From sequence record PP400780: 64,000 nt of DNA. The stretch is one strand, 5' to 3'. Shown in pieces: positions 20,155 to 64,000 of this stretch. The DNA comes from Escherichia phage FL18. Below the pieces are notes generated by a model that was not told the origin of the DNA, made no database searches, and was given only the letters and a program-made list of their open reading frames with translations. Within the stretch, counting starts at the first letter, position 1. The number at the start of each line of letters is the position of its first letter. The position numbers and the translations under genes were made by a program.

Positions 20155-20280
20155 AAGCAATAACAATAGGACTTTTACTATTGATGCTTGTCATGACTAT
20201 CTACTGGAGCTTAACGGCTCCGGTAATGATTCCAACACTTGTAATTGGATGGATTATGATTGGACTACAAGCAAAGTATG

Positions 20281-20307
20281 AATGCTTTAACTAGAATAGT
20301 GTACAAT
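20281..20307 (+). promoter_or_regulatory. MotA-box middle promoter upstream of nucleotidyltransferase-kinase gene
   Basis: AATGCTTTAA box about 19-20 nt upstream of TACAAT -10. Confidence 0.45.
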
Positions 20308-20335
20308 ACTCCTACTTACCAATGAGGACTTTAAC

Positions 20336-22021
20336 ATGAAAAAAGCTGTTATTCTTGGTGCTGGACTGGCAACTCGTTTGTATCCAATAACGCATCATAT
20401 TCCTAAGGTGCTTGTTAACTATAAACAAGATACTATTCTGAGCAATTTGTATACAATTTATTCTGACCTTGGCGCAGATGAAATTATTGTAGTAGTTCAT
20501 TCAAAATTTGCTGAAACTGTTCGAGCTTATTGTGAACAAGAAGGGTTCAATGTGACTATTCGTACAGTTGATGAAGCGTATGGTTCTGCTTATGCTCTTG
20601 CTAAATTACACAAAGATTTAGACGGCCATAATGTAATTGTTAACTGGTGTGATATTATTCCTGATTTTGGTTCATGGTCTTGGAATGTTAACGCAATCTA
20701 TGTTAAGGGTGACGAATGTCGATATAATTTCGACGGTGAAAATATCACTAACGTAGGTTCAACAGGTGGTAATGTTGTAGGAATTTATCAGTTCAAAGAC
20801 TGGGAATTCTATATGGGTTCTACTGATGAGGAAATTCATGAATACTGCAAAGGACGTGATTTCGTAGAATTCCTTTACGGCAGCGCATTCAATAAATCAG
20901 AGCTTATGAATCTAATTGATTTAGGTGATATGCCTAAACTTGAAAAAGCTCATGAAGTTCGTGAACTTAATCGTAGTTTTAATGCAGTTGAAATTGGTGA
21001 AGAAACTGTAACTAAATTCGCATTAACCGAACAGGGTCGAGCTCTTCAGAAAGATGAGATTTCGTGGTATCTTAAAGTGAAATCAGATTCAGTTCCTCAG
21101 TTAGTTTCTGTTAATGAAAATAACTTTGAAATGGAACGCATTAAAGGTAAGCCTGCATTTGAATATATTAAATCCAAATCAAGTCTTGCTCGTCCACAAA
21201 TTGTTGATGCAATTTTAGATGCACTGAAATTCAGCACAGACACTTATTTTGTAAGTCCTGAAACTGTTCGTCGTGATTTCACTAAAGAATTCTATACGAA
21301 AGTTATTGATCGTTGTGAAAGCATTCAACCATTGATTGATTCATTTGGTAAAATCACACATGTGAACTACACTAAGATTGGACGTCTGAAGCCAATGCTG
21401 AAACAAGCTTTAGAACACCTCATTCGTTATCATAACCGTTCTCAGGGACAGTACTCTGTTATTCACGGTGACCCGAACTTCAGTAATACTATGATTACTG
21501 ATAATGGCGAAGTCAAGTTTATCGACCCTCGTGGATATTTTGGTGAAACCAAGATTTACGGGCCAAAATTGTACGATGAAGCTAAAGTGCTTTATGCTGT
21601 TTCAGGTTATGATGAATTCAATGCTAATCCGACCTGGGGGCAGTTTACTATTGATGAAACAACTTGTAATGTGACTATTAACATCAATCCATTAGTTTAC
21701 AAATATAGAAAGATGAGTTCGTTTAACGAGTATCATCATTTGGCAGTGGCAATTATCTGGATTGCATTAGGCGGTTATTTCAAGAATAATCCACTTAAAG
21801 CGGTAGCCGCATATTATAAAGGTATGGAACTTCTGACTAAGCAATTACGTAACATGGGCCGTGTACTTCAGGACGGCTCTATTAGTTATGACGTAGCAGA
21901 ACCTGTAACGGCTACTCTGATTACAAAAAATCCTGGTAAATGGGTACTAACTGATAAAGAAACTGGTGTTTCCTATCGTCCAATCGGTGGCGATATCACT
22001 CATCAATGGGAACGAATCTAA
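20336..22021 (+). CDS. bifunctional sugar-1-phosphate nucleotidyltransferase / APH-fold sugar kinase
   Basis: 561 aa; N-terminal AVILGAGLATRLYPIT nucleotidyltransferase loop; C-terminal HGDPNFSN...FIDPRG phosphotransferase catalytic/Mg loops. Confidence 0.75.
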   Translation: MKKAVILGAGLATRLYPITHHIPKVLVNYKQDTILSNLYTIYSDLGADEIIVVVHSKFAETVRAYCEQEGFNVTIRTVDEAYGSAYALAKLHKDLDGHNVIVNWCDIIPDFGSWSWNVNAIYVKGDECRYNFDGENITNVGSTGGNVVGIYQFKDWEFYMGSTDEEIHEYCKGRDFVEFLYGSAFNKSELMNLIDLGDMPKLEKAHEVRELNRSFNAVEIGEETVTKFALTEQGRALQKDEISWYLKVKSDSVPQLVSVNENNFEMERIKGKPAFEYIKSKSSLARPQIVDAILDALKFSTDTYFVSPETVRRDFTKEFYTKVIDRCESIQPLIDSFGKITHVNYTKIGRLKPMLKQALEHLIRYHNRSQGQYSVIHGDPNFSNTMITDNGEVKFIDPRGYFGETKIYGPKLYDEAKVLYAVSGYDEFNANPTWGQFTIDETTCNVTININPLVYKYRKMSSFNEYHHLAVAIIWIALGGYFKNNPLKAVAAYYKGMELLTKQLRNMGRVLQDGSISYDVAEPVTATLITKNPGKWVLTDKETGVSYRPIGGDITHQWERI

Positions 22022-22407
22022 TGCACCGTGTAGAAAACATGCTTAATCTTTGTTTTGATGTCGATGATTGTATAACAGAGTGGAATAACAATCGTGATTA
22101 CGTGAACTTCAAACCTGACGTCGAAATGGTGTCTGCCATTAATGCCCTGTATGATGCAGGGCATACCATAACGCTTTACACTGCTCGCGGTATGAAGTCA
22201 GTAGGTCCTGGACGTATAGCAATTGACATTCTCCCAAGTCTGATTCAGAACTTGGAAAACATTGGTTTGAAGTACCATAATTTGCTAACACATAAACCAG
22301 TATATGATTGGATTATCGACGACAAAGCTATGCGTCCTGACGAATTCAAAGCTCTTATGAATAAAGGCGAATTCGAAACATTTAAATCGTATAAACCGAA
22401 TCTATAA
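22021..22407 (+). CDS. HAD-superfamily phosphatase (KdsC-like size)
   Basis: 128 aa from ATG overlapping upstream stop (TAATG); HAD motif I CFDVDDCIT. Confidence 0.65.
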   Translation: MHRVENMLNLCFDVDDCITEWNNNRDYVNFKPDVEMVSAINALYDAGHTITLYTARGMKSVGPGRIAIDILPSLIQNLENIGLKYHNLLTHKPVYDWIIDDKAMRPDEFKALMNKGEFETFKSYKPNL

Positions 22408-47722: not shown

Positions 47723-48677
47723 ATGATTATTGAAACGGCTAAAGAAACGATTATTGGTTCTGGTGGTAAAAGCACAGCATTTACTATTCAAGGCAATAGC
47801 AAAGTTTATAAGATTTTGTCTAATGACCTTTATACAAACAAAGAATTGGCTTGTGTACGTGAATTAATCACAAACTGTATCGATGGACAAATTCTTAATG
47901 GTTGCACTGATAAGTTTATTGTTCAGGCTCCAGGTCGTTTAGACCCACGTTTTGTAGTTCGAGACTTTGGTCCTGGTATGAGTGATTTCACCATTCGAGG
48001 TAATGACGAAGAGCCAGGAATCTATAACTCATATTTTGCTTCAACTAAAACATCGAGTAACGATTTCATTGGTGGATTCGGACTCGGCTCTAAAGCTCCA
48101 CTAGCATATACCGATACGTTTAACATTACTTCTTATCATAATGGTGAAGTTCGTGGTTATGTAATTTATCAAGATGACAGTGGTCCACAGATTAAGCCAA
48201 CCTTCGTAGATAAGATGGGTCCTGATGACCGGACCGGCGTTGAAGTAGTTGTGCCTGTTAACCCAGAAGATTTTGAAAAGTTCGCATCCGAAATTGCATA
48301 TGTTATGCGTCCTCTAGGTGATATTGCAGAAGTTCGCGGTGTTAAAGATATCAAATACTTTCCTGAATTCGATGATGTTTATTTAGCCAAGGAAGCTCCA
48401 TGGGGTGAACGTGGTAATATCATGGCTGTTTATGGTGGTATTGTATATCCAATCGGAAGTGTTATTAAAGAACAAACCTGGATGATGACGCGATGCACAC
48501 TACGGCTGGTTAGAATGCAACGAAGTTGTTATTGAAATCCCACCGGTAGATGCAGAATATCTTGAAGAAGGAGACCGCATTTATTTTGGCGAACTACACA
48601 TCAGAGGTATCTATGGTAAAGACGAACTTGGGGCTGTTGAGGCTGAAGAGTCTTCCGACATTTATCCTGTCGAATGA
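47723..48677 (+). pseudogene. rIIA: rII-locus remnant: rIIA N-terminal portion (270 codons) followed by a frame-shifted protein-like segment
   Basis: N-terminus close to T4 rIIA as recalled; frame stops at 48535; another frame stays open 48489..48677 with protein-like sequence. Confidence 0.55.
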
Positions 48678-48693
48678 GTTTTTGACTAGCGAA

Positions 48694-49170
48694 ATGAAGG
48701 TTAAGATCGCTGATACTGCTCGGTACTCGTTGAAACAAGATCCAGACCAAAACAAAGAAGATGTAGTTCGACGTTGTAAGGTTGCGGTCTTTGCAGAGTA
48801 TGTAGTAGCAAATTGGCTAGACGGATATGTTAATAAAGGTATTGAAGACGTAGAAGACCCGTACACGTATGCATGGGACGTGTTAGCCCATCCCAAGTAT
48901 TGTGGAATTCGTGTAGAAGTCAAGACACACCAGATAGATTCTAAATGGATTTCGGTTACCACAGGATACAGTGGTGATTATCCGGGTGGTAATGGAATCA
49001 ATATAGGGCCCTTCCTTAATCATCGAGTCGCAGATTGCATTATTATATTAGATGTCAAAGAAACCTCACCTGACGTCTTCTCTTATTCTATAAAGTTCGT
49101 GGGAGACCATGAAGACCTAAAGAAAATCGTCCGTAAGAGCAACTACAACGGGTGGTATCTTCATCTTTAA
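48694..49170 (+). CDS. hypothetical protein, possible PD-(D/E)xK nuclease (denB candidate by position)
   Basis: 158 aa from ATG in ORF 48550..49170; D...EVK motif (WDVLAHPKYCGIRVEVKTHQ); upstream of ndd as denB is in T4. Confidence 0.4.
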   Translation: MKVKIADTARYSLKQDPDQNKEDVVRRCKVAVFAEYVVANWLDGYVNKGIEDVEDPYTYAWDVLAHPKYCGIRVEVKTHQIDSKWISVTTGYSGDYPGGNGINIGPFLNHRVADCIIILDVKETSPDVFSYSIKFVGDHEDLKKIVRKSNYNGWYLHL

Positions 49171-49985: not shown

Positions 49986-50029
49986 GCTCTCATGGATTAC
50001 AAAAACATTAATCAATTGAGGAAATTAGC

Positions 50030-50476
50030 ATGACCAAATATTTAACTCGTAAAGACCTTCTGGCAGTTGGCGGTGAAGTTGTTGCAGTAGTTCGTAATGG
50101 CGAATACGGTTCTGAAGTTTCTAAAGAGTTTCGTTCTCGTGAAGGTTTTTACTTCTTCGTTAAAGGTTCATCTGATTGGCGACAAGTAGCAGCACGATTC
50201 TTTGTAGGACGTCAACGTTCTAAACAAGGGTTGGATGCAATTCTTTCTCATATTCGTCAAGGCCGTTCGCAACTAGCCCGTACCATGGGCACTAACAATA
50301 TTGAATATGATGTAATCTTTGTTTCAGCTAAGAACATGAAACCTCTGACTACTGGTTATGGTAAAGGTCAATTGGCTCTGGCGTTCACTCGCAATCATTC
50401 ATCAGAATATCAAACACTCACTGAAATGAACCGTCTTCTGGCAGATAATTTCAAATTCATTCTGCAGAGTTACTAA
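50030..50476 (+). CDS. ndd: nucleoid disruption protein Ndd
   Basis: 148 aa; [31 protein letters not shown]...[22 protein letters not shown] matches T4 Ndd as recalled. Confidence 0.85.
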
Positions 50477-50528
50477 TTTATATAGGCCTATTAAGTTGGG
50501 CCTTTAATTTATTTTTGAGGTAATTAAA

Positions 50529-50675
50529 ATGATAGCATGGATTATTGCATTGCTGTGTTGGTCGTTTTTATTCGTTAACACTTTAGTTACAGGCGAAACA
50601 ACAGTATTTCAACAGGCGGTATCACAAGGTACCTTAGCGGTCTTAGCTCTTCTTAACGTATTAAAAGGCGAGTAA
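50529..50675 (+). CDS. small hydrophobic peptide (48 aa; ac/52.1-like region)
   Basis: ATG with GAGGT RBS; single TM segment; below ORF-track cut-off. Confidence 0.4.
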   Translation: MIAWIIALLCWSFLFVNTLVTGETTVFQQAVSQGTLAVLALLNVLKGE

Positions 50676-50815
50676 TGATTAAGAAAATCTTAGCAGGAGC
50701 CTTCGGGCTCTTGTTGTTGCTTACGGTTCTGTACTACGGTGTGATGTTTGGGCTAATCCAAGTAGTGCTTTTCATTTCAGATGTTATAATGGTTATTCGT
50801 TCATTAATATGGTGA
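50675..50815 (+). CDS. small hydrophobic peptide (46 aa)
   Basis: ATG overlapping previous stop; hydrophobic throughout. Confidence 0.4.
   Translation: MIKKILAGAFGLLLLLTVLYYGVMFGLIQVVLFISDVIMVIRSLIW
50765..50790 (+). promoter_or_regulatory. MotA-box middle promoter upstream of gene 52
   Basis: TGCTTTT box about 19.5 nt upstream of TGTTATAAT. Confidence 0.4.
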
Positions 50816-50819
50816 AAAT

Positions 50820-52145
50820 ATGCAATTGAATTCTCGTAATCTAAAAAGTATTATTGATAACGAAGCCTTAGCATATGCGATGTACACCGTTGAAAACCGT
50901 GCAATCCCAAACATGATTGATGGATTTAAGCCGGTTCAACGTTTTGTGGTTCATCGTGCGTTAGATTTGGCTCGTGGTAATAAAGAAAAATTTCATAAAC
51001 TTGCGTCAATTGCAGGCGGTGTTGCAGATTTAGGTTATCACCATGGTGAATCTTCTGCACAAGATGCAGGTGCATTGATGGCTAACACATGGAACAACAA
51101 CTATCCACTGTTAGATGGCCAAGGCAACTTTGGTTCTCGAACAGTCCAAAAAGCTGCAGCATCTCGTTATATTTTTGCTCGTGTAAGTAAAAATTTCTAT
51201 AACGTATATAAAGATACTGAATATGCTCCAGCTCATGAAGATAAAGAACACATTCCACCAAAATTCTATCTTCCTATTATTCCGACAGTTCTTTTGAATG
51301 GTGTCTCTGGTATTGCAACCGGTTACGCAACAAATATTCTGCCTCATAGTTTTAAATCAGTCAAAAAGGCTGTATTACAAGCTCTTCAAGGTAAAAATGT
51401 CACTAAGCCAAAAGTTGAATTCCCGGAATTCCGTGGTGAAGTACATGAAGTTGATGGGCGTTATGAGATTCACGGAACATATAAGTTCACATCTCGCACT
51501 CAAATGCAGATAACTGAAATCCCATATAAATTCGACCGTGAAACGTATGTGAGTAAGGTTCTTGACCCGTTGGAAGACAAAGGTCTAATCTCATGGGAAG
51601 ATGATTGTGGTGAACACGGCTTTGGGTTTAAGGTGAAGTTCCGTAAAGAGTACTCGCTTCCTGATGATGAAGAGCTACGTCATGAAAAAATCATGAAAGA
51701 TTTTAGTCTCATCGAACGTCGTTCACAAAACATCACAGTGATTAATGAAAAGGGTAAATTAGCTGTCTACGATAACGTAGTGGACTTAATCAAAGATTTT
51801 GTTGAAGTCCGTAAGACTTACGTTCAGAAACGTATTGACAACAAAATCCTTGAATCTGAAAAAGCATTTAAACTGGCTTTTGCTAAGGCACACTTCATCA
51901 AAAAAGTTATCAACGGTGAAATTGTGATTCAGGGCAAGACTCGTAAAGCTTTGACTGAAGAGCTAGCACAAATCGAAATGTATAAAGAACATGTCGATAA
52001 ACTGGTAGGTCTTAACATCTTCCATATCACTTCTGACGAAGCACGTAAACTAGCAGAAGAAGCTAAAGCTAAGAAAGAAGAAAATGAGTATTGGAAGTCT
52101 ACTGATGTTGTGACAGAGTATACTAAAGACTTGGAGGCACTTTGA
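50820..52145 (+). CDS. 52: type II DNA topoisomerase medium (GyrA-like) subunit gp52
   Basis: 441 aa; N-terminal NMIDGFKPVQRFVVH, catalytic-Tyr region; size as T4 gp52. Confidence 0.92.
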   Translation: MQLNSRNLKSIIDNEALAYAMYTVENRAIPNMIDGFKPVQRFVVHRALDLARGNKEKFHKLASIAGGVADLGYHHGESSAQDAGALMANTWNNNYPLLDGQGNFGSRTVQKAAASRYIFARVSKNFYNVYKDTEYAPAHEDKEHIPPKFYLPIIPTVLLNGVSGIATGYATNILPHSFKSVKKAVLQALQGKNVTKPKVEFPEFRGEVHEVDGRYEIHGTYKFTSRTQMQITEIPYKFDRETYVSKVLDPLEDKGLISWEDDCGEHGFGFKVKFRKEYSLPDDEELRHEKIMKDFSLIERRSQNITVINEKGKLAVYDNVVDLIKDFVEVRKTYVQKRIDNKILESEKAFKLAFAKAHFIKKVINGEIVIQGKTRKALTEELAQIEMYKEHVDKLVGLNIFHITSDEARKLAEEAKAKKEENEYWKSTDVVTEYTKDLEAL

Positions 52146-52221
52146 GTGCCCTAGCCTTAGGATTTCTCAGTGCAATAGCTGCACTAGTGATTTGGCTATA
52201 TTGGTTGGACAAACATGATTA

Positions 52222-52245
52222 GGGAGCTTCGGCTCCCTTTGTGCA
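52222..52245 (+). terminator. intrinsic terminator
   Basis: GGGAGC-TTCG-GCTCCC followed by T-rich tract. Confidence 0.55.
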
Positions 52246-52262
52246 TTTTCCTCACAAAACAG

Positions 52263-52290
52263 TTTACACGTGCTTCAAACATGATATTAT
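52263..52290 (+). promoter_or_regulatory. T4-type early promoter upstream of motA
   Basis: TTTACA then about 16 nt then TGATATTAT. Confidence 0.5.
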
Positions 52291-52329
52291 AGACCTATCA
52301 AAACAAAACAACCAAATTGGAGAAATAAA

Positions 52330-52962
52330 ATGTCTAAAGTTACTTACATCATCAAAGCTTCTGAAAACGTTCTGAATGAAAAAACTGCTGCAATAATGGT
52401 TTATATCATTAAGAACAACTTCACAACTGCTGCCAATGTCCGTGAAGCTCTGGAAGCAGAATACAATGCATCAGTTGTTAACTCTAACATTGGTGTATTG
52501 ATTAAGAAAGGTTTAGTCGAAAAATCTGGTGATGGACTTGTAGCAACAGGCGAAGCAATGGATATTATCCAAAAAGCTGCAGACCTATTTGCTCAAGAAA
52601 ATGCTCCAGAACTTCTTCAGAAACGTAACACCAGAAAAGCACGTGGAGTTACTCCTGAAATGCATGAACTAGCAAACTTTGTTTTTGAAAATATTAAAGA
52701 TAAAGTTGAAGTTAAAGAAATTGGTGAAAACCGTAGTAACTTGGAAGTTCGATTTGCAAAACGAGTTCTAGGTATTCGTCAGATCGAAATTCGTCGAGAT
52801 GGCGCTCTTAGAATCTTTGCATACAACATGTCAGAAACTGAATCAAAGCTGTTTACTTCTCTTGAAAATGATGTTAAGATTAAGATCGGTGGTAAATATA
52901 CCTACATTGACTTCCCTAATGTGTCCAAAGAAATCATTACCCTTGTAACTAACGTACTGTGA
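52330..52962 (+). CDS. motA: middle-transcription activator MotA
   Basis: 210 aa; N-terminal MSKVTYIIKAS and NSNIGVLIKKGLVEKSGDGL match T4 MotA as recalled; C-half more divergent. Confidence 0.85.
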   Translation: MSKVTYIIKASENVLNEKTAAIMVYIIKNNFTTAANVREALEAEYNASVVNSNIGVLIKKGLVEKSGDGLVATGEAMDIIQKAADLFAQENAPELLQKRNTRKARGVTPEMHELANFVFENIKDKVEVKEIGENRSNLEVRFAKRVLGIRQIEIRRDGALRIFAYNMSETESKLFTSLENDVKIKIGGKYTYIDFPNVSKEIITLVTNVL

Positions 52963-52972
52963 GGAATACATA

Positions 52973-53302
52973 ATGAATAAGCTGAATATTATTAACGAAC
53001 TTCGTAAATGTGCAGAACCTACTCAGGAAGGATGGGATATTTGGTACCACGGGGCTTATTTAGGGACAATTGTAAAGATTAAAGCAGGCCAATATACGGT
53101 TATTCGTGAAAATAATGACGCGCCATTTGGCCTTCGTAAAAACTACATGGCAGCGATCAGTTCATTTGTTGATGCAGCTTACGAAATCTATAAAGAAGAT
53201 TATAAAGAATATCAGCAGTCACAACCGGTTATTCGTTCGATTGGTGTAAATAAACAAGCACAAAAATCTATTTGGCAACGTATTAAGGAATGGTTTAAAT
53301 GA
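52973..53302 (+). CDS. hypothetical protein (109 aa)
   Basis: ORF between motA and asiA. Confidence 0.55.
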
Positions 53303-53760
53303 AAACTTTTAAAGAACGTTTAGCTCTGTTAGATAAAGCTTTGTCGCGTGAGACTCCGGAAAGTCTGGCTGCTAAATTAGCTTCTTACGGTGGTGAATAT
53401 ACAGAACAAAATGTTTTAGACGAAGTTCCTGAAATCTGTTGGCAGACTGTGTATTGGGATGAAAACCAAAAGTATCAACGACGAATTGTCTGTGCAGCCA
53501 ACCGTTTTAAATTAAAAGATGGACGAACTCTTGTTATTCCAGGTGCTCGTCATTATTCTAAAGATATGGCAGAAGTTTTAGATGTAGTTAAACCTCAATT
53601 AGTTACTCAGCAAGTTTGTGATGATGACCAAGGGTTTATTGATCAATATAGTAATTATTGGACACGTGAAGAAGCAATGATTATTGCAACTTACGCTGGA
53701 CAAGTACGTATTGAACGTGGTGGTAATGAAAAAGAACTTTACTCTGAGGACCTTTACTAA
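53299..53760 (+). CDS. hypothetical protein (153 aa)
   Basis: ATGA-coupled ORF. Confidence 0.6.
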
Positions 53761-54056
53761 TGAATATTAAAAAGTTTCAAATTGATGGAATTACGAATCA
53801 AATTAAGGCATTGGAATATGCTAACAAAATGATGTCAACTAATTGGGGAATTTATACCAATGAGCCGGGATTTAAGTTCTGCGATATGGAATTCGCCAAA
53901 AAGCTTGTAGGAAAAGATTATGTATGTCCATTTAGTTCTCCAGTAAATGGAATGCTAAAACCTGCTTTACGCGATCTTTATATTGCGATGAACGAAGAAA
54001 TGATAAAAGAGTTAAAACGTCAACTGAAGGTGATTCAATTTGGCCAGGGAAATTAA
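53760..54056 (+). CDS. hypothetical protein (98 aa)
   Basis: ORF overlapping previous stop. Confidence 0.55.
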   Translation: MNIKKFQIDGITNQIKALEYANKMMSTNWGIYTNEPGFKFCDMEFAKKLVGKDYVCPFSSPVNGMLKPALRDLYIAMNEEMIKELKRQLKVIQFGQGN

Positions 54057-54258
54057 TTCAAAATCTGATTATTTTAATTCTCTCAATGATAAAGATAAAA
54101 ATCTAATAAGGCATTTTATTGTTGAGATGGGATATACGGATACACACGATTTAAGAGAACATATATTTGAATGTGGTGTAGCTAAAAAGTTTTCATTCAC
54201 ATGCAAATGTTTGAGAGAGGTAATTCAGCACTATGAACAATTTAGTCGCAAAACATAA
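54040..54258 (+). CDS. hypothetical protein; start uncertain
   Basis: Track start is TTG; first in-frame ATG would give only 43 aa. Confidence 0.3.
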   Translation: MAREINSKSDYFNSLNDKDKNLIRHFIVEMGYTDTHDLREHIFECGVAKKFSFTCKCLREVIQHYEQFSRKT

Positions 54259-54341
54259 TTTTAATAAAGCTTCTGTTCATAAAGATAAGAAGAAAGCGTT
54301 TAAAGAATCTAATCGCAAACAGAAACATAAGGGGAAGGTCT

Positions 54342-54620
54342 ATGATTATTGATTCTCAGTCCGTGGTTCAATACACAATCAAAATTGATATTCTAGAAAA
54401 GCTATATAAGTTTCTACCAAATTTATACCACTCAATTGTCAGTGAATTAGTTGAAGAACTGCATCTTGAGAATAATGATTTCTTGATTGGAACTTATAAA
54501 GACCTCTCAAAAGCAGGATATTTTTACGTAATTCCAGCTCCAGGAAAAAGTATCGATGATGTATTAAAAACTATAATGATTTATGTCCATGATTACGAAA
54601 TTGAAGATTATTTCGAATGA
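54342..54620 (+). CDS. hypothetical protein (92 aa)
   Basis: ATG with AAGGGGAAGG RBS. Confidence 0.55.
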   Translation: MIIDSQSVVQYTIKIDILEKLYKFLPNLYHSIVSELVEELHLENNDFLIGTYKDLSKAGYFYVIPAPGKSIDDVLKTIMIYVHDYEIEDYFE

Positions 54621-54721
54621 GTCATAATCTTGAAAAGGTAATCGAGCATAATGTAGCTCAGGAACGTGAGTCGTTCAAAGAATTCGTAGAAAAAATTTTT
54701 GAAGAAAATAACACAGACCAG

Positions 54722-54750
54722 TTTACAAATCAAGCGTCTGATGATATTAT
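54722..54750 (+). promoter_or_regulatory. T4-type early promoter upstream of asiA
   Basis: TTTACA then 17 nt then TGATATTAT; second TGGTATAGT at about 54771. Confidence 0.45.
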
Positions 54751-54781
54751 AACAAAGTCAACTAATTGAGTGGTATAGTTA

Positions 54782-55054
54782 ATGAATAAAAATATTGATA
54801 CAGTTCGTGAAATTATTACTGTTGCGTCTATTTTGATTAAATTTTCCAGAGAAGATATTGTTGAAAATCGTGCTAATTTTATTGCATTTCTGAATGAGAT
54901 TGGAGTAACGCATGAAGGTAGAAAATTAAATCAGAATTCATTCCGTAAAATTGTTTCTGAATTAACTCAAGAAGATAAGAAAACCCTCATCGACGAATTC
55001 AACGAGGGTTTTGAGGGTGTATATCGATATCTAGAGATGTATACGAACAAATAA
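54782..55054 (+). CDS. asiA: anti-sigma70 protein AsiA
   Basis: 90 aa, identical to T4 AsiA as recalled. Confidence 0.95.
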   Translation: MNKNIDTVREIITVASILIKFSREDIVENRANFIAFLNEIGVTHEGRKLNQNSFRKIVSELTQEDKKTLIDEFNEGFEGVYRYLEMYTNK

Positions 55055-55711
55055 TTATTTAGCCCTTCCTAATATTCTGGCCGCCTGAGCACATATTGAT
55101 TCAAGGCGGTCATTACTTATATGATCATTTCTATACCAGTACATGGTTATCGTTCCAGCATAGATATTATCCAAATTAAAATATGGACAACTGTACATGT
55201 AGTTTATTTCGGGAGTAGGCTTTTTAGTTGGTAAAAAAGCAAATTTTGAGTTGGAATAATAATGACGTCCATTTAAATGAACTGTATATTCATCCATAGT
55301 TTTATCAACAGGATATCCTCCAAGTGATTTTTCACTTATTGTTGAAGGTAATTTTCCTTCGTATGCTATAATATCAACAAAATAGTTTAAGTTTTTAGGG
55401 CGGAAAGAATACACCGCACTAAAGTCTGCCTCAGATGATATATGAACTATCTGGAGTTGTTCCAGGGCGACAGATTCAAAGCGTGCAGTTCTTTCCTTTT
55501 CAATAATTTCACGGTATGTTTCATACTTTGATTGCTTATAGTACTCAAAGAAACTATCTCCCCTATACCAAACAATCGCCATTATAAACAAAAGAATTAC
55601 GACAGCTACCCGGGAAGCAAGAACTTTCCCGGTAGCGTTATCTTTGAACAAGCGATCTAGAACACCAAATAGAATATCAGAGGGCGAAAATGATATTCTA
55701 GGTGCTGCCAT
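55055..55711 (-). CDS. t: holin T
   Basis: 218 aa, matches T4 holin; single N-terminal TM and large periplasmic domain; convergent with asiA. Confidence 0.95.
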   Translation of the reverse strand: MAAPRISFSPSDILFGVLDRLFKDNATGKVLASRVAVVILLFIMAIVWYRGDSFFEYYKQSKYETYREIIEKERTARFESVALEQLQIVHISSEADFSAVYSFRPKNLNYFVDIIAYEGKLPSTISEKSLGGYPVDKTMDEYTVHLNGRHYYSNSKFAFLPTKKPTPEINYMYSCPYFNLDNIYAGTITMYWYRNDHISNDRLESICAQAARILGRAK

Positions 55712-55742
55712 AGACCCTCCTTTTAAGGATATTTATTCAAAA

Positions 55743-56516
55743 TTATACTCTTGAACCGTATATTGTACCAACCTTAGTCCATGTTGGGGCATTTCCGGTA
55801 ACAGCTTTACCTGCTGCGCCGCCGTTATATTCTGTACCGTTACCTTGAGTATTACATCTTCCTCCAGCAGCACCAACGTTACCGCCCGCACCGCCTGTAT
55901 ATGCACTAAGAGACCCCTCACCAACAGATCCTTTACCAGGAGCGGAAATAGTACCAGCAGTTGCACCGGAACTCATATGAGAGGAAGACCCACCAGCACC
56001 GAATGGGCACCCACCGCCACCGCCAAATATTAGTTTACCCCTGTTACCGCCGCCACCGCCGCCGCCGCCGCCTGCAATAGCTCCGCCATTATTAATTCTT
56101 AGTCTCCCACCAATATCGTTTTGAATACAATGACCCCCAGCTGAGCCAGGACTATTGCTACCACCATTACCTCCACGACCATACATTGTTACGCCATGTA
56201 TATTTAACTGAACATATTCATTTGGTGTATCTCCGTACATGAAGAATAAAGGAACATCTTTAGAATATGATACTAAATCTCCAGTGATATTAAACACTAT
56301 AGGTGCACTACCTGCCTCAAAACATCTATCTCGGAACCATTGACCATTGAAGTTATGGTCTGCTCCAAGTGTGTGAATTACTTCAACAGATCGACCTATC
56401 ATATTACTCATCCAAAACGGAATTCCCATTCTCAATCTCTGTGCGGCACCACCCATCCAAGGATCTCCAGTCTGTACCCTCGCAGACCATCCTACCCACG
56501 GTCCTTCAACTGCCAT
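55743..56516 (-). CDS. 38: long tail fibre tip adhesin gp38 (T2/T6-type, glycine-rich motifs)
   Basis: 257 aa from ATG (track start is GTG); conserved N-terminus [10 protein letters not shown]; poly-Gly blocks [20 protein letters not shown]. Confidence 0.85.
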
Positions 56517-56526
56517 ATACACCTCC

Positions 56527-56543
56527 GAGGGGCTGAAGCCCCT
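56527..56543 (-). other. hairpin between gene 37 stop and gene 38 RBS
   Basis: GAGGGGC-TTCA-GCCCCTC on the transcribed strand, immediately upstream of GGAGGTG RBS. Confidence 0.3.
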
Positions 56544-56547
56544 CTTA

Positions 56548-59500
56548 TTATTTTAACAATGATTTAACTAATTTTTTAAGCTCTTCAATCTCTGACTTAA
56601 GTTCTGCAATTTCTGCAGTATGTTCATTGATTGCAGCTGTATTTAAACCAATTACACCGTTATAGTTCAAACGAAGTAAAGCTTCGCCATCAGGGTCACC
56701 TTCAACTAATTCAGGCAAAATAGCTTGAACTTCTTGAGCTATCAAACCGGCGTTTGGTTCCCATTTCTGATTACCATCTTCGTCAGTTCCACGTTTCTGC
56801 ATATATGTGTAACCATTAATTTTGGAAAGCTTCTCAGAAGCATTTTCAAATTTAATTAAATCCTTTTTAACACGAATATCAGAACGAACATAAACATCGC
56901 GGACATATGTAGAATAGGCATCGCTCTGTTGGACTAAATGACCATGAGAAACGATAGCTCTTCCGGTTTCTGTCCAAAAAGCACCAGTTGTATCCCAAAG
57001 CCCAGGATGAGATTGATAGCCTGCTCCCCAGTTTGCAATATGTATACCATTGGCAACCATATTGATTCGGCCGTCACCACCATGAACTAATCCTGTATCA
57101 TTATCACCAATAACAAGACATGGTCCAGTCCACACTGGGTCGCCACCGCCAGCCGATAATCTTGCTCCGGTTTTAACCATGTTAGGAACATACATAACTC
57201 CATTGTGGTGAAATTCATAGATGGCTTGTGGGCCGGAACCATTTTCCTGATTACCTACACGAATAATACCTTGTGCCCATATATTAGGGGCACGGCGCAT
57301 ACCAAAATCTACGCCGGAAAAATATCCTTCATTCGTAATACCAGATCTTCCTTTAATAATAGGATAATAACAGTCATTACTGACACTACCAAAATCCACA
57401 AATACAGGAGCTTCTAAGCCCCATTGGTCACCCCATGCACCGGATTGATGGGCCGACCATTGTGCAGCCTTTATATAAAGGCGGTCCCTATTAAAATAAA
57501 AAGTATCCGACCCTTGAGGAGCTAAACTAATTTCCCCGCTATTATGAATATTAACACCCGAATTAGTTTGGAAACTATAAAACGATAGGGCGTTATGAGC
57601 GCCGCCATTGCCCACATACCAGTTATTAACGCCTGCTTTTTGTCCTTTCACATAACCAGATTCAGTTGCCGCACTGTTAATAACAATAGCATCCGAGTTT
57701 GTATTCAGAGTTAAACGGCCGGTCATCGTGTCGCCTTCTTTAGAAACACGGGTAGCAATAGCGTCACGGATATTTGTAGTGTCTCCTGCTGAAGTAAACG
57801 ATTTCCAAATATCCGAGAAAATATTACCATTTCTAGCAATAGTAGCTTCACCGCCGCCGACCTGAACGTTATCTGGGAAGTTAACAGTACCGTCTTGATT
57901 AAAACGAGACGTATGGCCTTGTGATCCATCTTCTTTGATATGGTGTAAAACAAATGTACCCGAATTAATTTCAGTACCTAAAGACCAAACGCATTTACCG
58001 TTTAAAAACTTCTGTTTAACAATAGGATAATATTTGCTTACAGCATCATCGATTTCCTGGAAAATAGGAGCCGCTTGAGCATATTGAATGTCATAACCGC
58101 CAGCTCCCGCACCGTGACCAGTAAATTTAATATAGCCGTTTGCTGCGAACGTATTGTAACTTGATTGTAAATCTGGAATAGTAACTTTACCAGTATCTAA
58201 AGCCATACTAAACGGGCGAAGTGGACCGATATCGCCGTGTTTACCTTCACCGTAAGCAGTTGGAATAATATGAAGACTTCCTTCTGAACGTCTAAAAATA
58301 GCTCCATAATCTGCGTTCCAAATACGAAGCGCATTCACAGCCCCAGATGAAATTTCGCCTGTTGTGTGAACTCCCCTATCTCCAGCAGTAACGCCAGATG
58401 ATTCAAATGAACCGTTAACGTTCATTTCTACTTCACCTGTTGTAAGTCTTTGAATATAGCTCATCCAACTAGTTGCATCAGAAATTTCCATGACGTTTTT
58501 ACGATTACCTACACTAGGATTAGTAAACGTATTGCCCCAAACGGAAATTGTCATATTATCAACTGAACTACTACCAGTTGTGTTACCTCTAAACATCAGT
58601 GTAGAAGCATTATTTCTACCATCGATATTAACAGAACCGCCGACCACATCTACATCACCGGGAGTAACTAACAAACCGCCATGGGTATTAATGTTTGTAG
58701 TACCTTTACCGCGGAAATAGTGATGATAATTACCGCCTTGATAATATCCTAAAAGAGTCTGACCATCTCCAACCGCGTTATTATCGTGATATGTCACAAC
58801 AGTAGCAAGAGCATAATTTTCAGTTGGAGGAGTAGTTAAATCGGTTCCGTTAGTAGAATATCCAGCTACAAATTTTCTTAGGCTAGTTGTTTCGCTAGGA
58901 CTAAATAAAAACGTTTTTGTTCCATTATTAACGCTGAAATAATATCCGTCCTGATGCCATTTTAGCCCGGTATCATTATCGCCAAGAGAAATTGAAGCAG
59001 TCCCTAATTCAGAGTATCCTTTATTGCCACCAGGAGTACCAACAGAAATAGAATGGCCTGCTTTCAATCCACCGGACCAGGTAAACGACCAAAGATAAGT
59101 GTCTAAGCCATCTCCAGTATACCAAGTTATTCCATCATTATCTTTAACTTCATGGAATACGCCAGCGCCTACAGCATTGCGCATAACACGGAGATGATTA
59201 ATAGCCGTAGTGCTTTCAGCCAATGGAACGTTGTCTGCCATAGAATAAATGTCATAATCGCTCGTAGATTTATTATTAGTAATAACTCTATTTGTCAAAA
59301 TCTGAGGAGTTGACATAGATTTCCATGCTGATACTTCAGGTGAAGTAAATAGGCCACTGCCTGAAAATGCATAAGTGCTTTCGCTACCGGCGGCGTAGTC
59401 TTGAACCCTGATATTAAGTACTTGTGTAGTTAAACCATCATTAGCCGGGGCATAAATGATTCCACGTTCACGATCAGCCGAATCATTAAAACGAACATGT

Positions 59501-59856
59501 GCTGTACCTGAACTTTTTGTAACAAGTTCACCGCCTTCGGTCATAATCTGCCCAGCGGCAATAATATCACGAGTTACTCGAGCAATACCGGTTAAATTAA
59601 AATTACCTGTCTGAGTGAAGGTGCCATTTAAAGTATAATCGCCAGTTTGGTTATAATTGCCAGTATGAATAACATTCCCGTCAATACTACCACCTTTAGC
59701 AAAACCCAGATCAATAATATTTCCTTGGTCATCTTTAGTAAAAAGTACACGGTCTTTTAAGTTTATAGCCAATTCACCTTCGGCTAATACTGAAGCGGCA
59801 GGACGTGCTCCTGCAGTTTTGCTTCTTTTAAATTGTATTTGTTTTAAAGTAGCCAT
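56548..59856 (-). CDS. 37: long tail fibre distal subunit gp37
   Basis: 1102 aa; N-terminus [13 protein letters not shown] as T4 gp37; C-terminal [15 protein letters not shown] intramolecular-chaperone-like domain. Confidence 0.92.
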
Positions 59857-59864
59857 AAGTCCTC

Positions 59865-60527
59865 TTAATAATAGCCGAAATCTTGAACAGAATCTTTAAT
59901 TACAATCTGGTCGAAACGAGGAACATGATTAGCCTTGGAGGCCGGATTCTGTGAGAAAAAGTTTGGTGCTGTTAAAGTACCCGTCATGGTATCGCCTTTA
60001 CGCAATACACGGGAATTTGCGTTATCCGTAACAATATTTATTCGTCCATCAACATAATCTTTACGAGTAAGGTCATTTGCTGCTATAGGAGCAGCCGCAT
60101 CACTTCTTACTTGACCTGATGCTGATACAACACCTTTTGTGTTAATATCACCATTACGTGTATTAATTACAATAGTTCGGGCTGCTGAACCTTGTGATGA
60201 TTTAAAACCAATACCATTCCATGAAACGATGTCAATATTTGCCATAGCAAAAGTAGCTGCATCACCGTTACCTGGATAAACACCACACTGTTGACTACTA
60301 CCTACAGTAGGAACATGTACGCCTCCATTAAATCGAACAGTTGCAGCGTAAGTACCACCATTAGCTTTAGAAACGAAATCGTTATCAGCAGCTTGTGGTT
60401 TATTATATTCTGAATAGAGTTTAAACGTTTTATACAGGACGTCATCACCTGCTGGCATTAAAGGGAAATTACCTTGATGCCATATAACGGCACCGCCAGT
60501 TGTACTACCAGCTTTTAAATCGGCCAT
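59865..60527 (-). CDS. 36: long tail fibre hinge protein gp36
   Basis: 220 aa, near-identical to T4 gp36 as recalled. Confidence 0.92.
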   Translation of the reverse strand: MADLKAGSTTGGAVIWHQGNFPLMPAGDDVLYKTFKLYSEYNKPQAADNDFVSKANGGTYAATVRFNGGVHVPTVGSSQQCGVYPGNGDAATFAMANIDIVSWNGIGFKSSQGSAARTIVINTRNGDINTKGVVSASGQVRSDAAAPIAANDLTRKDYVDGRINIVTDNANSRVLRKGDTMTGTLTAPNFFSQNPASKANHVPRFDQIVIKDSVQDFGYY

Positions 60528-60589: not shown

Positions 60590-61717
60590 TTATTCTGATG
60601 CTTCTTTAAATTCTTGTCCAAATACCTTACCAGTATCAGTTGAAGATTGAGTAGGTAATGTCATTATGTCTGGGGCACTTAAAGATTCTGAAACATAATT
60701 TACACGAATACCATTTATACCAAACTCAGCAGGTTTTGAAACGCTTCCATTACATGATACTTCAGTGAATATAACGTTTCTTAATCCACCTTGCCCGACT
60801 GGAGCTGTACGATAACAATAAATCGTGAACCCGTCAGCACCAGCAGGAATTTCTATGTAGTCTTCATATATCTTCCATTCACCTGCGTCCCCATCAAAGT
60901 TTATATCCTTAAATGAAATAGGTGAAGTAGAAGGAGATTTAAAGAAACGAATAGAAAGTCGTGTCGTCCCTTGTGCTAACAAATCGGCATCGGCCATTAG
61001 TTGGAATTTCATATAAAGGAAATCTCCAGGCTTCAATTTATACCCAGCGAGAGGTGTAATAATGGACGTTGTAGGCATCCTTTTAATTTCATTATTAGTA
61101 CCTCCAACAGCAGATAAAAATGTGTCTGTCGATTCGTACGTACGACTAGGGAAGCCGGTAGCACCAATATCATCGATCGTGTCGTACACAACATCAAGTG
61201 GTGTACTATAGTCGGTTGAAGTTTTCTTATTACTATACTTAATATGTTCTAGTGCTATAGCATTCTTACCAGAAATATAAAATGCAGAATAAGAAATGTC
61301 CACTATATTTAAAACTTGTTGAGCTAATGGAATAGCAGAACTCCCAGCTTTGGTAAACCATGCGAGAACTTCAGGAGGAAAGTTTGTTTTAGCGTTAGTA
61401 ACAAGAGCAAATATAAAATTTGAAGCATATGTGTCCATGTAAGTAACAAATGCACTTGACGTGGCGTCGTTTTCAGTAGAGAAATTATATGACTTAGATT
61501 CAACTACTGCACCTGTTGTAGGATTTATTACACGAACGTTTAATCCAACGTAAAAAACCTGGGAACCAAGTGGATTATCCTGGAACTTAATATAAGCAGG
61601 AGATGTTGATAGCGGGCAAGAGCCCGCTATGCTTAATTTAAATCGTACTGAATTGCTTTCCGATAAAAATGGCGTTTGGACGTATCCTTGTCCAAACTTA
61701 GCCATAAATTTTTCCAT
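60590..61717 (-). CDS. 35: long tail fibre proximal connector gp35
   Basis: 375 aa, close to T4 gp35 as recalled. Confidence 0.92.
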   Translation of the reverse strand: MEKFMAKFGQGYVQTPFLSESNSVRFKLSIAGSCPLSTSPAYIKFQDNPLGSQVFYVGLNVRVINPTTGAVVESKSYNFSTENDATSSAFVTYMDTYASNFIFALVTNAKTNFPPEVLAWFTKAGSSAIPLAQQVLNIVDISYSAFYISGKNAIALEHIKYSNKKTSTDYSTPLDVVYDTIDDIGATGFPSRTYESTDTFLSAVGGTNNEIKRMPTTSIITPLAGYKLKPGDFLYMKFQLMADADLLAQGTTRLSIRFFKSPSTSPISFKDINFDGDAGEWKIYEDYIEIPAGADGFTIYCYRTAPVGQGGLRNVIFTEVSCNGSVSKPAEFGINGIRVNYVSESLSAPDIMTLPTQSSTDTGKVFGQEFKEASE

Positions 61718-61725: not shown

Positions 61726-64000
61726 TTATTCAATCCACTCGAATTTAACAGATTTATTCACAGGGTCCGGAATAATGCGGACATTACCAATCCTTAAGAA
61801 ATCCCTTATTGTCAAGTTTCCGATTGTTGCATTATCAGAAGGTAAAGCACCAATATCAGAAGGTTGAGGAGGGTTTCCACCATCAAATACCTGAACAAAA
61901 CTTGACCAAGAATTTTTGGTTTTCTGCCATGTACGTGTCCAACGGGTTGTACGTGCTTCTGGAGTTGTTGGATAAGTAATCCAATCTTGGTAAAGTGAAT
62001 CAAGTGTGTTACCAAACTGAGTCAGTGTACCAGGAGATTTAACTTCTTCGCCACGTTCTAAGTATGGAAGCCCAGTCACTTCATTAGTTTTTTCAACCAT
62101 TTTAAAATAACCTGGGAACTGGTTATAAGTGGCTGAATCGTTAATATCGATTGACCAGAATCCTACAGTATCAGATGTTGGCGAACGGGTATATAAATCA
62201 GATGTTTTAGTACCCTGAGAACGAATGCTCGAGTAAACAGATAAACCACCTGAATTTATAGTAACACCTTTAGCAATGATTAAGCCTTCACCAATTGTAA
62301 TCTGGCCGGATTGATTATTAATTGATAATGGGCGTAATCCATTAAATCCACCAGTCTGATCACCTGATGCAGTAAGCATAAAATATGTGCTGCCTCCATC
62401 ATTGCGAATAAAGAATCCGTAATCACCACTAATTGCTCTGAAAGCATTTGCAGACTTGCTAATGAATTCACCATTGGCTGTAACTGAACGACCAAATGTT
62501 GCAACACCATTCGCATTTAACGTGCCTGAAGCGTTAACATTTATTGGCATCACAGTACCATTAATGCTAAACGTTATATTCCCAGCTTTATTACGTTGAG
62601 AATAAAAGTGATTAGATGTTTCATCACCAACTTCAAATACAGTAGAACGTGTTGTATCTGAACCACCACCAAATTCATTTCCCCAAACTCTGATAGTCAT
62701 CGTCTGTGCTGGGTTAGTTCCAGTCTGAGGTCCTTTCTCAAAAATCAGACGAGTTGCCGTTCCAGTATTAGAAATAGTTAATGTACTATTTGCCGAAACT
62801 GAACCACCAAACGTAGCAGTACTAGATGATACAAGAGGGGCACTCAGATTCGTTTGTTGTGTTAAGGTTAGTGAACCATTAACCGTCTGTGCAATGTCCC
62901 TACGAATGAACTGAGATGAATCTAGGCCATCTAATAAATTTGCATCAGCAGCTTTAGCTTTCAATGGCAAATAGTTAGCAAGTACACGGTTTAATTCATA
63001 TGGAGATATAGCATAGCTATTTTTTTCATACGATTCTAAAGGTTGTGTTGAACCAACTGTATCATTACCAACAAATGTAATAGAACCAGATGAAGTTTTA
63101 ACGAATCCGCGAATTGTTGTAGTAGCAGCCCATGTTGGTTCATTCTGGACAATCCATTTTAAATTCTTAGGAGATACAGCAGTATTAGCAGAAGTTCCTG
63201 TTACAGTTTCAGCCTGAGTAGCAACCTTAATTACGCCTTCAGACGTTTCAGTGGACTTAGTCCCTAAAAGCTTTTTAGGAGTAATAAGAACATCATCTAA
63301 AGTTCCTGCATTAGATTCTGCCTGGGTCGCTACTCGAAGTGTACCACGTTGTGTTTCATTTGCTTTAGAAATATCAAGAGTATAATGGTTCCACAAGGTT
63401 CCTTCTTCAATAAGTCCGGAATCAGAATTAACACTGGTACGGTCAGAAGAATCAAAATGAGTTTTAATTTTCAGTGGAGTCGAGATACGAGTATCATCAG
63501 TTCCAGTATCAAATTCAACTTGCGTAGCAAGTTCGGCTATGCCGGATAATCCTTCCGTCGCTCTCCTATCATTTAACGTCTTAGGCGTTACTGCACGTGT
63601 ATAATCAGTCCCAGCATTAGTTTCTGCTTGCGTAGCAATTTCAATTAAACCAATACGTCCATCAGTAGAAGTTTTCTTATGTAGTGTTTCAGGAGTTACT
63701 ACAGCGTGAGAATAACCTGCTTGGGATTGACCAGCAATTACTTCACTTTCAAGAGCCAGAATAGTAGCACCCTGTTGAGTAGAAGTCGCTTTATACTGAT
63801 CGAGAGCTTTAGGCGAAATAGTTAACGTAGTTGTGTCTTTATTATAAACGTTAGTGCCTGCAGTTCCACGAGTTTCAGCAGGAGTAGCAGAAGCAGTTGA
63901 TACATATTTAACTATACCCGATAGTGTTTCGGAACCCTGACGTGCCTGTAATTTCTTAGGCGTAATAATCGTTGTGTCATCAATTCAGCCTGAGTAGCAA
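61726..64000 (-). CDS. 34: long tail fibre proximal subunit gp34 (C-terminal part; gene continues beyond window)
   Basis: Open frame from window edge region to stop at 61726; repeated VATQAE-type motifs; C-terminus IGNVRIIPDPVNKSVKFEWIE as T4 gp34. Confidence 0.85.

Follow-up and report, generated by a model that had tools for sequence, protein, structure and literature searches.

The (gp37)3-gp38 architecture of a long-tail-fibre tip has been described for phage S16, together with the role that N-terminal tryptophan residues of gp38 play in the attachment helices (PMC6851490). In T2 and T6, gp37 is cleaved C-terminally before it is capped by gp38, and the receptors are given as FadL/OmpF for T2, Tsx for T6, and the set OmpF, FhuA, and LPS core for RB69 in PMC3157838. 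Exchange of adhesin specificity via recombination at the GRMs goes back to Tetart et al. 1998, as cited in Trojet et al. 2011. For Escherichia phage FL18, receptor tests of the kind proposed in an earlier note on this DNA are already in print: in Lutz et al. (2025, npj Viruses, PMC12032242), FL18 is OmpA-dependent, failing to plate on an ompA deletion strain, infects only with OmpA variants 1, 3, and 4, and, like FL12 and FL20, has a narrow-host-range "type 2" Gp38. The adhesin family, the intramolecular chaperone (IMC) of gp37, GRM recombination, and the OmpA receptor of FL18 have all been published, and the locus described below carries little weight as a discovery because it represents known biology in a published phage.

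The window, that is, the whole 64,000-nucleotide stretch of DNA that was analysed, is assigned to the Mosigvirus Escherichia phage FL18. Positions 1-25000 are 98.7% identical in nucleotides to Mosigvirus JM17, positions 50001-53200 are 96-100% identical to RB69 and JM17, and the products of genes 35, 36, 37, and t match the FL18 proteins exactly (Table 1), as expected of the same or an indistinguishable phage. The segment under study, 55743-59856 on the minus strand, is bounded exactly by the gene 38 stop codon and the gene 37 start codon. With a probability of roughly 0.9, it is the distal module of the FL18 long tail fibre, working and assembled by recombination in the following way. Trimerisation of gp37 would produce the distal half-fibre, with the C-terminal ~111 residues (from Ser992), an S74-type IMC, driving folding of the trimer and then, as in homologues, being removed by autoproteolysis. 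One gp38 monomer would cap the exposed gp37 tip through an N-terminal helical, Trp-bearing attachment domain, homologues suggesting a gp37:gp38 stoichiometry of 3:1. The polyglycine (PGII) sandwich of gp38 would display hypervariable loops for receptor binding, the published receptor of FL18 being OmpA, limited to certain OmpA loop variants. The module would have been built through homologous recombination at conserved sequence blocks. In this account, genes 34-36 belong to a Mosigvirus lineage like that of JM17, the RB69/Ac3 type accounts for gene 37 together with the 5′ 60% of gene 38, and Tequatrovirus-derived DNA begins at the poly-Gly codons of GRM2 in gene 38 and extends via t, asiA, and arn to arn.2.

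Table 1. Features of the distal tail-fibre locus and its surroundings, in window coordinates.
Feature	Position	Strand	Basis
Tequatrovirus-derived patch (as assigned by identity): arn.2, arn.1, DUF7230 ORF, arn, asiA.1, asiA, t, 3′ ~40% of gene 38	53760..56063	.	nt identity
Gene t (holin), T4-type allele	55055..55711	-	PF11031, E = 4.5e-118; XAO15125.1 exact
Gene 38, receptor-recognising adhesin (257 aa)	55743..56516	-	PF05268, PF21721; PDB matches 9v85, 6F45_D
gp38 aa 115-257, GRM/HVS specificity domain, OmpA "type 2" kind	55746..56174	-	aa identity; 35% Gly
Crossover within gene 38, poly-Gly codons of GRM2 (aa 149-157)	~56044..56064	-	base-level mismatches
gp38 aa 1-114, attachment domain and start of beta-helix, RB69/Ac3/FL23 type	56175..56516	-	aa identity; Trp7, Trp20, Trp35
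Gene 37-38 intergenic: hairpin GAGGGGCTTCAGCCCCTC, then GGAGG Shine-Dalgarno	56517..56547	-	sequence
Gene 37, distal subunit of the long tail fibre (1102 aa), RB69/Ac3 type	56548..59856	-	ORF; matches FL18 XAO15127.1 exactly
gp37 aa 992-1102, Peptidase_S74 intramolecular chaperone with predicted self-cleavage at Ser992	56551..56883	-	PF13884
gp37 aa 913-991, distal beta-helical tip carrying gp38	56884..57120	-	within 6F45_A alignment
gp37 aa 1-60, N-terminal segment conserved across T-even phages	59677..59856	-	sole part "close to T4"
Crossover block, gene 36/gene 37 boundary	59816..59895	-	contains stop of gene 36 and start of gene 37
Gene 36 (220 aa)	59865..60527	-	PF03903; XAO15128.1 exact
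Gene 35 (375 aa)	60590..61717	-	XAO15129.1 exact
Gene 34, C-terminal ~750 codons, continues beyond window	61726..64000	-	PF21560, PF21446

The earlier note had pictured a T4-like fibre (genes 34-36 plus the shaft of gp37) carrying a grafted receptor-recognition module of the T2/T6 type, with the junction inside gene 37. This arrangement is now very improbable. The nearness of genes 34-36 to T4 on which it drew is borne out for the C-terminal half of gp34 (87% identity over 752 residues) and for gp36 (82%) but not for gp35 (63%), and all three proteins lie nearer to Mosigvirus JM17 (96.7%, 90%, and 97% for gp34, gp36, and gp35, with RB69 at 73%, 74%, and 75%). An apparent 13-nt frameshifting deletion is seen in gene 34 at the edge of the window and, if real, would put the proposed assembly of the fibre in doubt. 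The N-terminus of gp37 does resemble T4, with residues 1-35 being 94-100% identical in T4 (94%), T2, T6, RB69, and JM17, and residues 36-60 being 80% identical to T4, but the T4-like segment is equally conserved in T2, T6, RB69, and JM17, and the resemblance ends there. The shaft, residues 61-700, is 25-45% identical to T4 versus 94-100% identical to RB69, and aligned identity to T4 drops to 14% in residues 701-800, 6% in residues 801-900, and 0% thereafter. Over its full length, gp37 is 92.3% identical to RB69 and 90.5% identical to Pu-Krd-SF5, compared with 40% identity to T4 over residues 1-679 only, so the shaft cannot be called T4-like in this Mosigvirus genome. The receptor-recognition end fits a T2/T6 graft in that gp38 belongs to the T2/T6 family, but gp37 is just 34-39% identical to its T2 and T6 counterparts, and in the type Mosigvirus, RB69, a 1103-residue gp37 is likewise followed by a 257-residue gp38. 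The RB69-type module on a Mosigvirus backbone is thus the corrected picture.

The C-terminal end of gp37 is as the earlier note described it, an intramolecular-chaperone domain in place of the T4 tip. Residues 913-1102 match the gp37 chain of the S16 structure (6F45_A, E = 4.4e-44), and the Pfam profile PF13884 (Peptidase_S74) is matched at residues 992-1051 of 1102 with E = 1.5e-12 and 48 bits against a cut-off of 22. The T4 receptor-binding tip (C-terminal ~300 residues of T4 gp37) was sought in gp37 and is absent, local alignment stopping at residue 679. The domain begins with S992-D-I-R-V-K997, an S-D-x-R-x-K motif that is common to the gp37 proteins of RB69, T2, and T6 and is absent from those of T4 and JM17. 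The serine at the beginning of the domain and the lysine five positions after it form what we take to be the Ser/Lys dyad of MEROPS S74 and endosialidase work, and autoproteolysis of the IMC at Ser992 is inferred by analogy.

The mosaic structure was mapped by 150-200-nt identity scans and by base-level breakpoint alignment against the nearest relatives. Upstream of the gene 36/37 boundary block, the window follows JM17, with a single mismatch in 60050-59951; the block itself, 59895-59816, is invariant among all compared phages; and starting at 59815, the window has the RB69 sequence, which here is distinct from those of JM17 and T4. This switch from JM17-like to RB69-like sequence at the gene boundary contradicts a T4 graft, and one T4/T2 junction within gene 37 was rejected by the 150-nt scan together with the base-level alignment. 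In that scan, gene 37 appears as a fine patchwork of RB69/Ac3-type alleles and not as a T4/T2 hybrid. As a whole, genes 37-38 reach a best nucleotide identity of ~89-91% among 50,697 phage records, a set that does not include FL18, and this level is too low to point to a donor. The second crossover lies in gene 38, where the last mismatch specific to Tequatrovirus contig L014 is at 56064 and those peculiar to FL23, Pu-Krd-SF5, or FL12 set in at 56055-56044; beyond it, from ~56050 through t, the window is near-identical to L014. These mismatches place the junction that is relevant to host range, swapping specificity, in gene 38 (poly-Gly codons of GRM2) and not in gene 37. The mosaic breakpoints of FL18 are not described in the available sections of Lutz et al. 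2025 (PMC12032242), and a map at base level could help in the design of chimeric fibres.

The attachment and specificity domains of gp38 differ in their resemblance to other phages. Residues 1-114 are identical to FL23 (100%), 96-98% identical to RB69 (96%), Ac3, and Pu-Krd-SF5, and 42% identical to T2, an attachment-domain type that fits the RB69-type tip of gp37. Trp7, Trp20, and Trp35 are all present, Trp7 and Trp20 being conserved in at least 90% of 120 sequences. Residues 115-257 are 86.7% identical to FL20 and FL12, 73% to FL23, 72% to T6, and 46% to RB69, and from residue ~145 onward gp38 is near-identical to P0036. In alignments of gp38 with 9 and with 119 homologues, the GRM glycines are invariant or near-invariant and the segments between them are variable. 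The view that host range is set by the hypervariable loops of gp38 is consistent with the literature, including the published FL18 data (PMC12032242). Cys170 in GRM3 is rare, with arginine at this position in 111 of the 119 cluster representatives; a sequencing error was considered and rejected, as two natural gp38 clusters that are independent of each other, P0036 and P0051, have the identical string; both are from the lineage that donated the C-terminal half of gp38.

A T6-like, Tsx-binding adhesin could be read from the overall identity of gp38, which is 74.7% to T6 and 84.7% to the Tsx-dependent FL23, and from HVS1 and GRM1, which are the same as in T6 and FL23. The specificity domain, however, is closer to the OmpA-dependent FL12 and FL20 than to Tsx-binding T6 and FL23 by the values given above, HVS2 reads NRGKLIF versus YYSPFSQMRLT in the Tsx set, and HVS3 differs from the Tsx set by a 4-residue insertion (EGSLSAY); both segments agree with OmpA-dependent FL12, FL20, and P0036. 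Together with the experimental OmpA dependence of FL18 (PMC12032242), these segments leave the Tsx assignment with a probability of a few parts in a hundred.

Family membership of gp38 was judged against the Pfam gathering scores (cut-off 25 for both profiles), and both are greatly exceeded: PF05268 (GP38) with E = 2.7e-70 and 237.1 bits, and PF21721 (Gp38_N) with E = 1.3e-19 and 70.3 bits. Among solved adhesins, residues 1-255 align over the full length of the S16 gp38 chain 6F45_D (E = 2.1e-50), and residues 37-257 match 9v85 (E = 9.4e-78). The family matches of gp38 and gp37 lie far above what chance would give, and gp38 is classified from them as a T2/T6/S16-type glycine-rich adhesin. The claim of the earlier note that gp38 is such an adhesin and not the T4 chaperone therefore holds, as does the alignment it proposed with T2, T6, and T4, in which gp38 sides with the T2/T6 adhesins; the gp38 and gp37 protein strings that it quoted are all found in the sequences. 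A T4-type assembly chaperone outside the virion, with gp37 itself binding the receptor, is refuted at sequence level: although some database records label gp38 homologues "distal long tail fiber assembly catalyst", the 183-residue T4 gp38 gives no meaningful alignment with gp38 (best local match, 7 of 24 residues), the adhesin profiles and the S16 structure match strongly, gp37 has no T4 tip, and JM17, which does hold a T4-type pair, has a 183-residue gp38 with a 1018-residue gp37.

The start of gp38 is assigned to ATG 56516, which has a GGAGG Shine-Dalgarno sequence 5 nt upstream; GTG 56522, taken from a mechanical list of open reading frames, was rejected in its favour. A hairpin lies just past the gene 37 stop codon. 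The 31-nt spacing between genes 37 and 38 also occurs in RB69, Ac3, and G2133, where a terminator is annotated in G2133, and the placement of gene 38 directly downstream of an IMC-ending gp37 and upstream of t is likewise that of RB69, T2, T6, and Ac3. The FL18 adhesin in GenBank begins at Met21 (237 residues; P0001) and is 100% identical to residues 21-257 of gp38, so the deposited start is probably 20 codons too short. The shortened version loses two of the three attachment tryptophans, which is of relevance to anyone expressing or modelling the adhesin.

Downstream of the gene 38 crossover, the Tequatrovirus patch is ~2.3-2.6 kb long, with its right-hand crossover in conserved arn.3 (53460-53760). 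Its nucleotide identity is 95-100% to T4, T2, T6, LDJ77, and L014, compared with 80% or less, or no match, for RB69, JM17, and PTE-Eco05, and the t holin is 99.5% identical to T4 t versus 72% to RB69 t. As the 3′ part of gene 38 and t share a Tequatrovirus origin, the OmpA-specific HVS2-HVS4 set would have been imported along with the T4-type holin. Relative to any single known donor, the patch is itself mosaic, L014 being the best match in gene 38 and t and LDJ77 in 53800-54500. It is conceivable, though rated somewhat below an even chance, that the OmpA-specific half of the adhesin, from HVS2 to the C-terminus, entered this Mosigvirus as one contiguous Tequatrovirus cassette of this length together with T4-type t, asiA, asiA.1, arn, arn.1, and arn.2, with the poly-Gly codons of GRM2 at one end and arn.3 at the other as conserved "landing pads". 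If so, host-range, lysis-timing, and anti-restriction genes would move between genera as one linked unit.

Compared with known systems, the FL18 module matches that of RB69 in architecture, protein lengths, spacer, and gp37 IMC. The two phages differ in the specificity domain of gp38 (only 46% identity, versus 92% for gp37 and 96% for the attachment domain), in the receptor set (OmpF/FhuA/LPS core versus OmpA), and in the holin, which is only 72% identical because FL18 has the T4-type t. The domain plan of FL18, compared by protein sequence, is like that of the S16 (gp37)3-gp38 tip (6F45), comprising an attachment bundle that bears Trp residues, a beta-helix, and a PGII sandwich containing GRMs and HVS loops; S16 differs in its HVS sequences and its host. 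T2 and T6 share the adhesin family (gp38 identity of 53% and 75%, respectively) and an IMC-terminated gp37, with S-D-x-R-x-K at ~100-113 residues from the C-terminus in all, but their gp37 proteins differ in length (1341 and 994 residues) as well as in sequence. T4 shares with FL18 the gp37 N-terminus (~60 residues), a weak homology of the shaft reaching about residue 700, and the gene order 34-35-36-37-38-t; its gp38 is an unrelated chaperone, and its gp37 has its own receptor-binding tip without an S74 domain. The gp38 of JM17 is likewise unlike that of FL18, with 124 of 178 residues identical to T4 gp38. As in the GRM recombination of Tetart et al. 1998, the gene 38 crossover of FL18 falls in the GRM2 poly-Gly codons and swaps HVS2-HVS4; unlike that exchange, the FL18 tract does not stop with gene 38 but takes in ~2 kb more, reaching t, asiA, and arn, and crosses genera.

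At the tip of the distal half-fiber of FL18, gp38 is an adhesin of the glycine-rich-motif (GRM) type, as an earlier note had proposed, and gp37 ends in an intramolecular chaperone domain rather than in a T4 tip. gp38 matches the Pfam families GP38 (E = 2.7e-70) and Gp38_N (E = 1.3e-19), aligns end to end with the crystal structure of the S16 adhesin (6F45_D, E = 2.1e-50), and aligns over residues 37–257 with 9v85 (E = 9.4e-78), whereas its best local alignment with T4 gp38 comprises only 7 of 24 residues. A Peptidase_S74 domain lies at residues 992–1051 of gp37 (E = 1.5e-12), and S16 gp37 aligns with residues 913–1102 (E = 4.4e-44). The domain opens with S992-D-I-R-V-K997, an S-D-x-R-x-K motif that is common to the gp37 proteins of RB69, T2, and T6 and absent from those of T4 and JM17. 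The Pfam, structure-chain, and motif results therefore bear out the core observation of that note, whose quoted peptide strings are found and whose span, 55743–59856, is exactly genes 37 and 38. As visualized for this family, the trimeric gp37 β-helix is capped by one gp38, the N-terminal helices of which put conserved tryptophans into gp37 pockets (PMC6851490); W7, W20, and W35 are present in FL18 gp38. By homology with solved structures, the GRMs build a polyglycine-II sandwich, with the distal loops of the hypervariable segments touching the receptor. The S74 domain (residues 992–1102) would help gp37 to trimerize, as a chaperone, and may then be cut off at Ser992 before gp38 docks, by analogy with T2 and T6, in which C-terminal cleavage of gp37 is reported to precede gp38 capping (PMC3157838).

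Fiber and lysis genes of the window, with protein identities (%)
Feature	Coordinates	Strand	Protein	T4	JM17	RB69
Gene 34, C-terminal part	61726 to window end	minus	gp34, C-terminal 752 aa	87	97	
Gene 35	60590–61717	minus	identical to XAO15129.1	63	97	
Gene 36	59865–60527	minus	identical to XAO15128.1	82	90	
Gene 37	56548–59856	minus	1102 aa, identical to XAO15127.1			
gp37 segment	aa 1–35			94		100
gp37 segment	aa 36–60			80		100
gp37 segment	aa 61–700			25–45		94–100
gp37 segment	aa 701–990			0–14		76–86
Gene 38	55743–56516	minus	257 aa			
Holin gene t	55055–55711	minus	identical to XAO15125.1			

The proposal that a T2/T6 module sits on a T4-like shaft does not hold for the distal half-fiber, in which the gp37 shaft is RB69-type. 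Full-length gp37 is 92.3% identical to RB69 gp37 and only 39% and 34% identical to the T2 and T6 proteins, respectively. The closeness of the N terminus to T4 stands for residues 1–60, but the first 35 residues are shared by all of the T-even phages compared (97–100% identity in T2, T6, RB69, and JM17), and the T4 resemblance of gp37, judged by sequence, is simply that of the universal T-even N terminus. Genes 34–36 were likewise described as near T4, which is partly right, yet each of the three proteins is nearer to JM17. RB69, Ac3, G2133, Pu-Krd-SF5, FL23, and PTE-Eco05 all have a 1103-residue gp37 and a gp38 of 257–258 residues, and this RB69/Ac3-type module is widespread, occurring in Mosigvirus and Tequatrovirus alike. 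By exact-sequence look-up, gp37, gp36, gp35, and the holin of the window are identical to proteins of FL18 (165,790 bp), whose accessions are given in the table. The best genome-wide matches are all Mosigvirus phages, and positions 1–25000 are 98.7% identical to JM17, yet JM17 carries a T4-type gp37 (1018 residues) and a 183-residue chaperone gp38 (L006, the JM17 sequence, 18425–22060); both tip systems therefore occur on near-identical Mosigvirus backbones.

The mosaic junction had been placed inside gene 37; instead, crossovers are located at the gene 36/37 boundary and in GRM2 of gene 38. In base-level alignment, the window tracks JM17 down to ~59895, followed by an 80-nt block, invariant in every phage compared, that reaches from the end of gene 36 across an 8-nt spacer into gene 37, up to ~codon 13. 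RB69 identity begins beyond this block, at 59815. No single switch was found inside gene 37, where the best match changes every few hundred bases among RB69, PTE-Eco05, Ac3, G2133, Pu-Krd-SF5, and FL23. The best nucleotide match over genes 37–38 in a 50,697-record phage collection is only ~89–91%, because FL18 is itself absent from that collection. A further observation concerns 57451–57600 (~codons 753–802 of gene 37), where identity to each of the eleven comparison phages does not exceed 70%, with flanks at 85–97% identity to one or more of these phages; by alignment, the distal shaft has a private patch here.

Codons 1 to ~148 of gene 38 are of the RB69/Ac3/FL23 type, and residues 1–114 of gp38 are 100% identical to FL23 and 96–98% identical to RB69, Ac3, and Pu-Krd-SF5. 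The crossover interval, ~56044–56064, falls within the GRM2 poly-Gly codons, and from there to the stop codon the window is nearly identical to L014 (Logan DRR277896_48), a Tequatrovirus-like contig whose gp38 (natural cluster P0036) begins with an N-terminal domain of quite another, T2-like kind. GRM3 reads GGGGGCPFG, with Cys170 (56007–56009) at a position that is Arg (GGGGGRPFG) in 111 of 119 cluster representatives. The Cys-bearing string is shared only with P0036 and a second natural cluster, P0051, both of the donor lineage; an error at this codon is thereby rejected, and Cys170 was inherited as a natural variant.

The tract 53760–55711 (arn.2, arn.1, a DUF7230 ORF, arn, asiA.1, asiA, and t), which directly adjoins the imported 3′ half of gene 38, consists of Tequatrovirus alleles in a Mosigvirus backbone. 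Near-identity to L014, T4, T2, T6, and LDJ77 (95–100% at the nucleotide level) runs on through t to arn.2, where RB69, JM17, and PTE-Eco05 give poor matches or none, and Mosigvirus-type sequence returns within the conserved arn.3 (53460–53760). The holin is accordingly nearer to that of T4 (99.5% identity) than to that of RB69 (72%). The receptor-specifying half of gp38 is thus one end of an ~2.3–2.6-kb Tequatrovirus-derived patch. The best matches differ between parts of this patch, which is compatible with one arrival or several.

As the start of gene 38, the ATG at 56516 is preferable to the GTG at 56522 given in a mechanical ORF list. GGAGG sits 5 nt 5′ of this ATG, and a GC-rich hairpin lies upstream of it, directly after the gene 37 stop. 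The resulting 31-nt spacer between genes 37 and 38 is the same as in RB69, Ac3, and G2133; the ATG agrees with the start in these phages and brings in codons 1–20 (56457–56516), with the conserved W7 and W20 of the attachment domain. The public FL18 "adhesin protein" begins at internal Met21 (237 residues, 100% identical to gp38 residues 21–257), and the deposited coding sequence is probably 20 codons short.

Outside genes 37 and 38, two lesions were observed relative to JM17. In gene 34, an apparent 13-nt frameshifting deletion (ACCGATGCTGGTC) lies 17 nt from the window end (63983–64000, minus strand), so that only 17 nt upstream of it are within the window. The gap falls between ...ATQAE and DDTTIITPKK, removes residues that RB69 and T4 encode, and shifts the frame to an in-frame TGA at 63985–63987. 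The gap was found in no other phage among the junction-spanning collection matches listed (154 nt of the record versus the 141-nt query). A truncated proximal fiber should be lethal, so the record either carries an error from sequencing or assembly here or shows something unexplained. In the rII region (47723–49170), a 2,526-bp deletion with its junction at 48492–48498 takes out rIIA from ~codon 259 onward, the whole of rIIB, and the beginning of the small ORF that follows, leaving a truncated rIIA ORF of 270 residues that directly adjoins denB. Among 167 matching phage records, the same junction is contiguous only in AV116 (OR352946.1, 95.6% identity), and the deletion therefore looks rare and naturally circulating.

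FL18 and its receptor, OmpA, are already published, and the finding is to that extent known. FL18 was isolated as a Mosigvirus with an assigned Gp38 adhesin, and OmpA is reported to be required for its infection (Lutz et al. 2025, PMC12032242); according to this report, the adsorption assay suggested in the earlier note has therefore already been carried out. FL18 is grouped there with FL12 and FL20 as carrying "type 2", narrow-host-range adhesins, and the three are described as infecting only with OmpA variants 1, 3, and 4 (PMC12032242). Identity of the gp38 specificity domain is 86.7% to the domains of the OmpA-dependent FL12 and FL20, 72–73% to those of T6 and FL23, which bind Tsx, and 46% to that of RB69. 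What is added here is the corrected description of the mosaic and the probable misannotation of the FL18 gp38 start. Each element has a known counterpart in the gp38 adhesins described by Trojet et al. (2011), in the S16 structure, in the S74 intramolecular chaperones, or in specificity exchange through recombination at GRMs.
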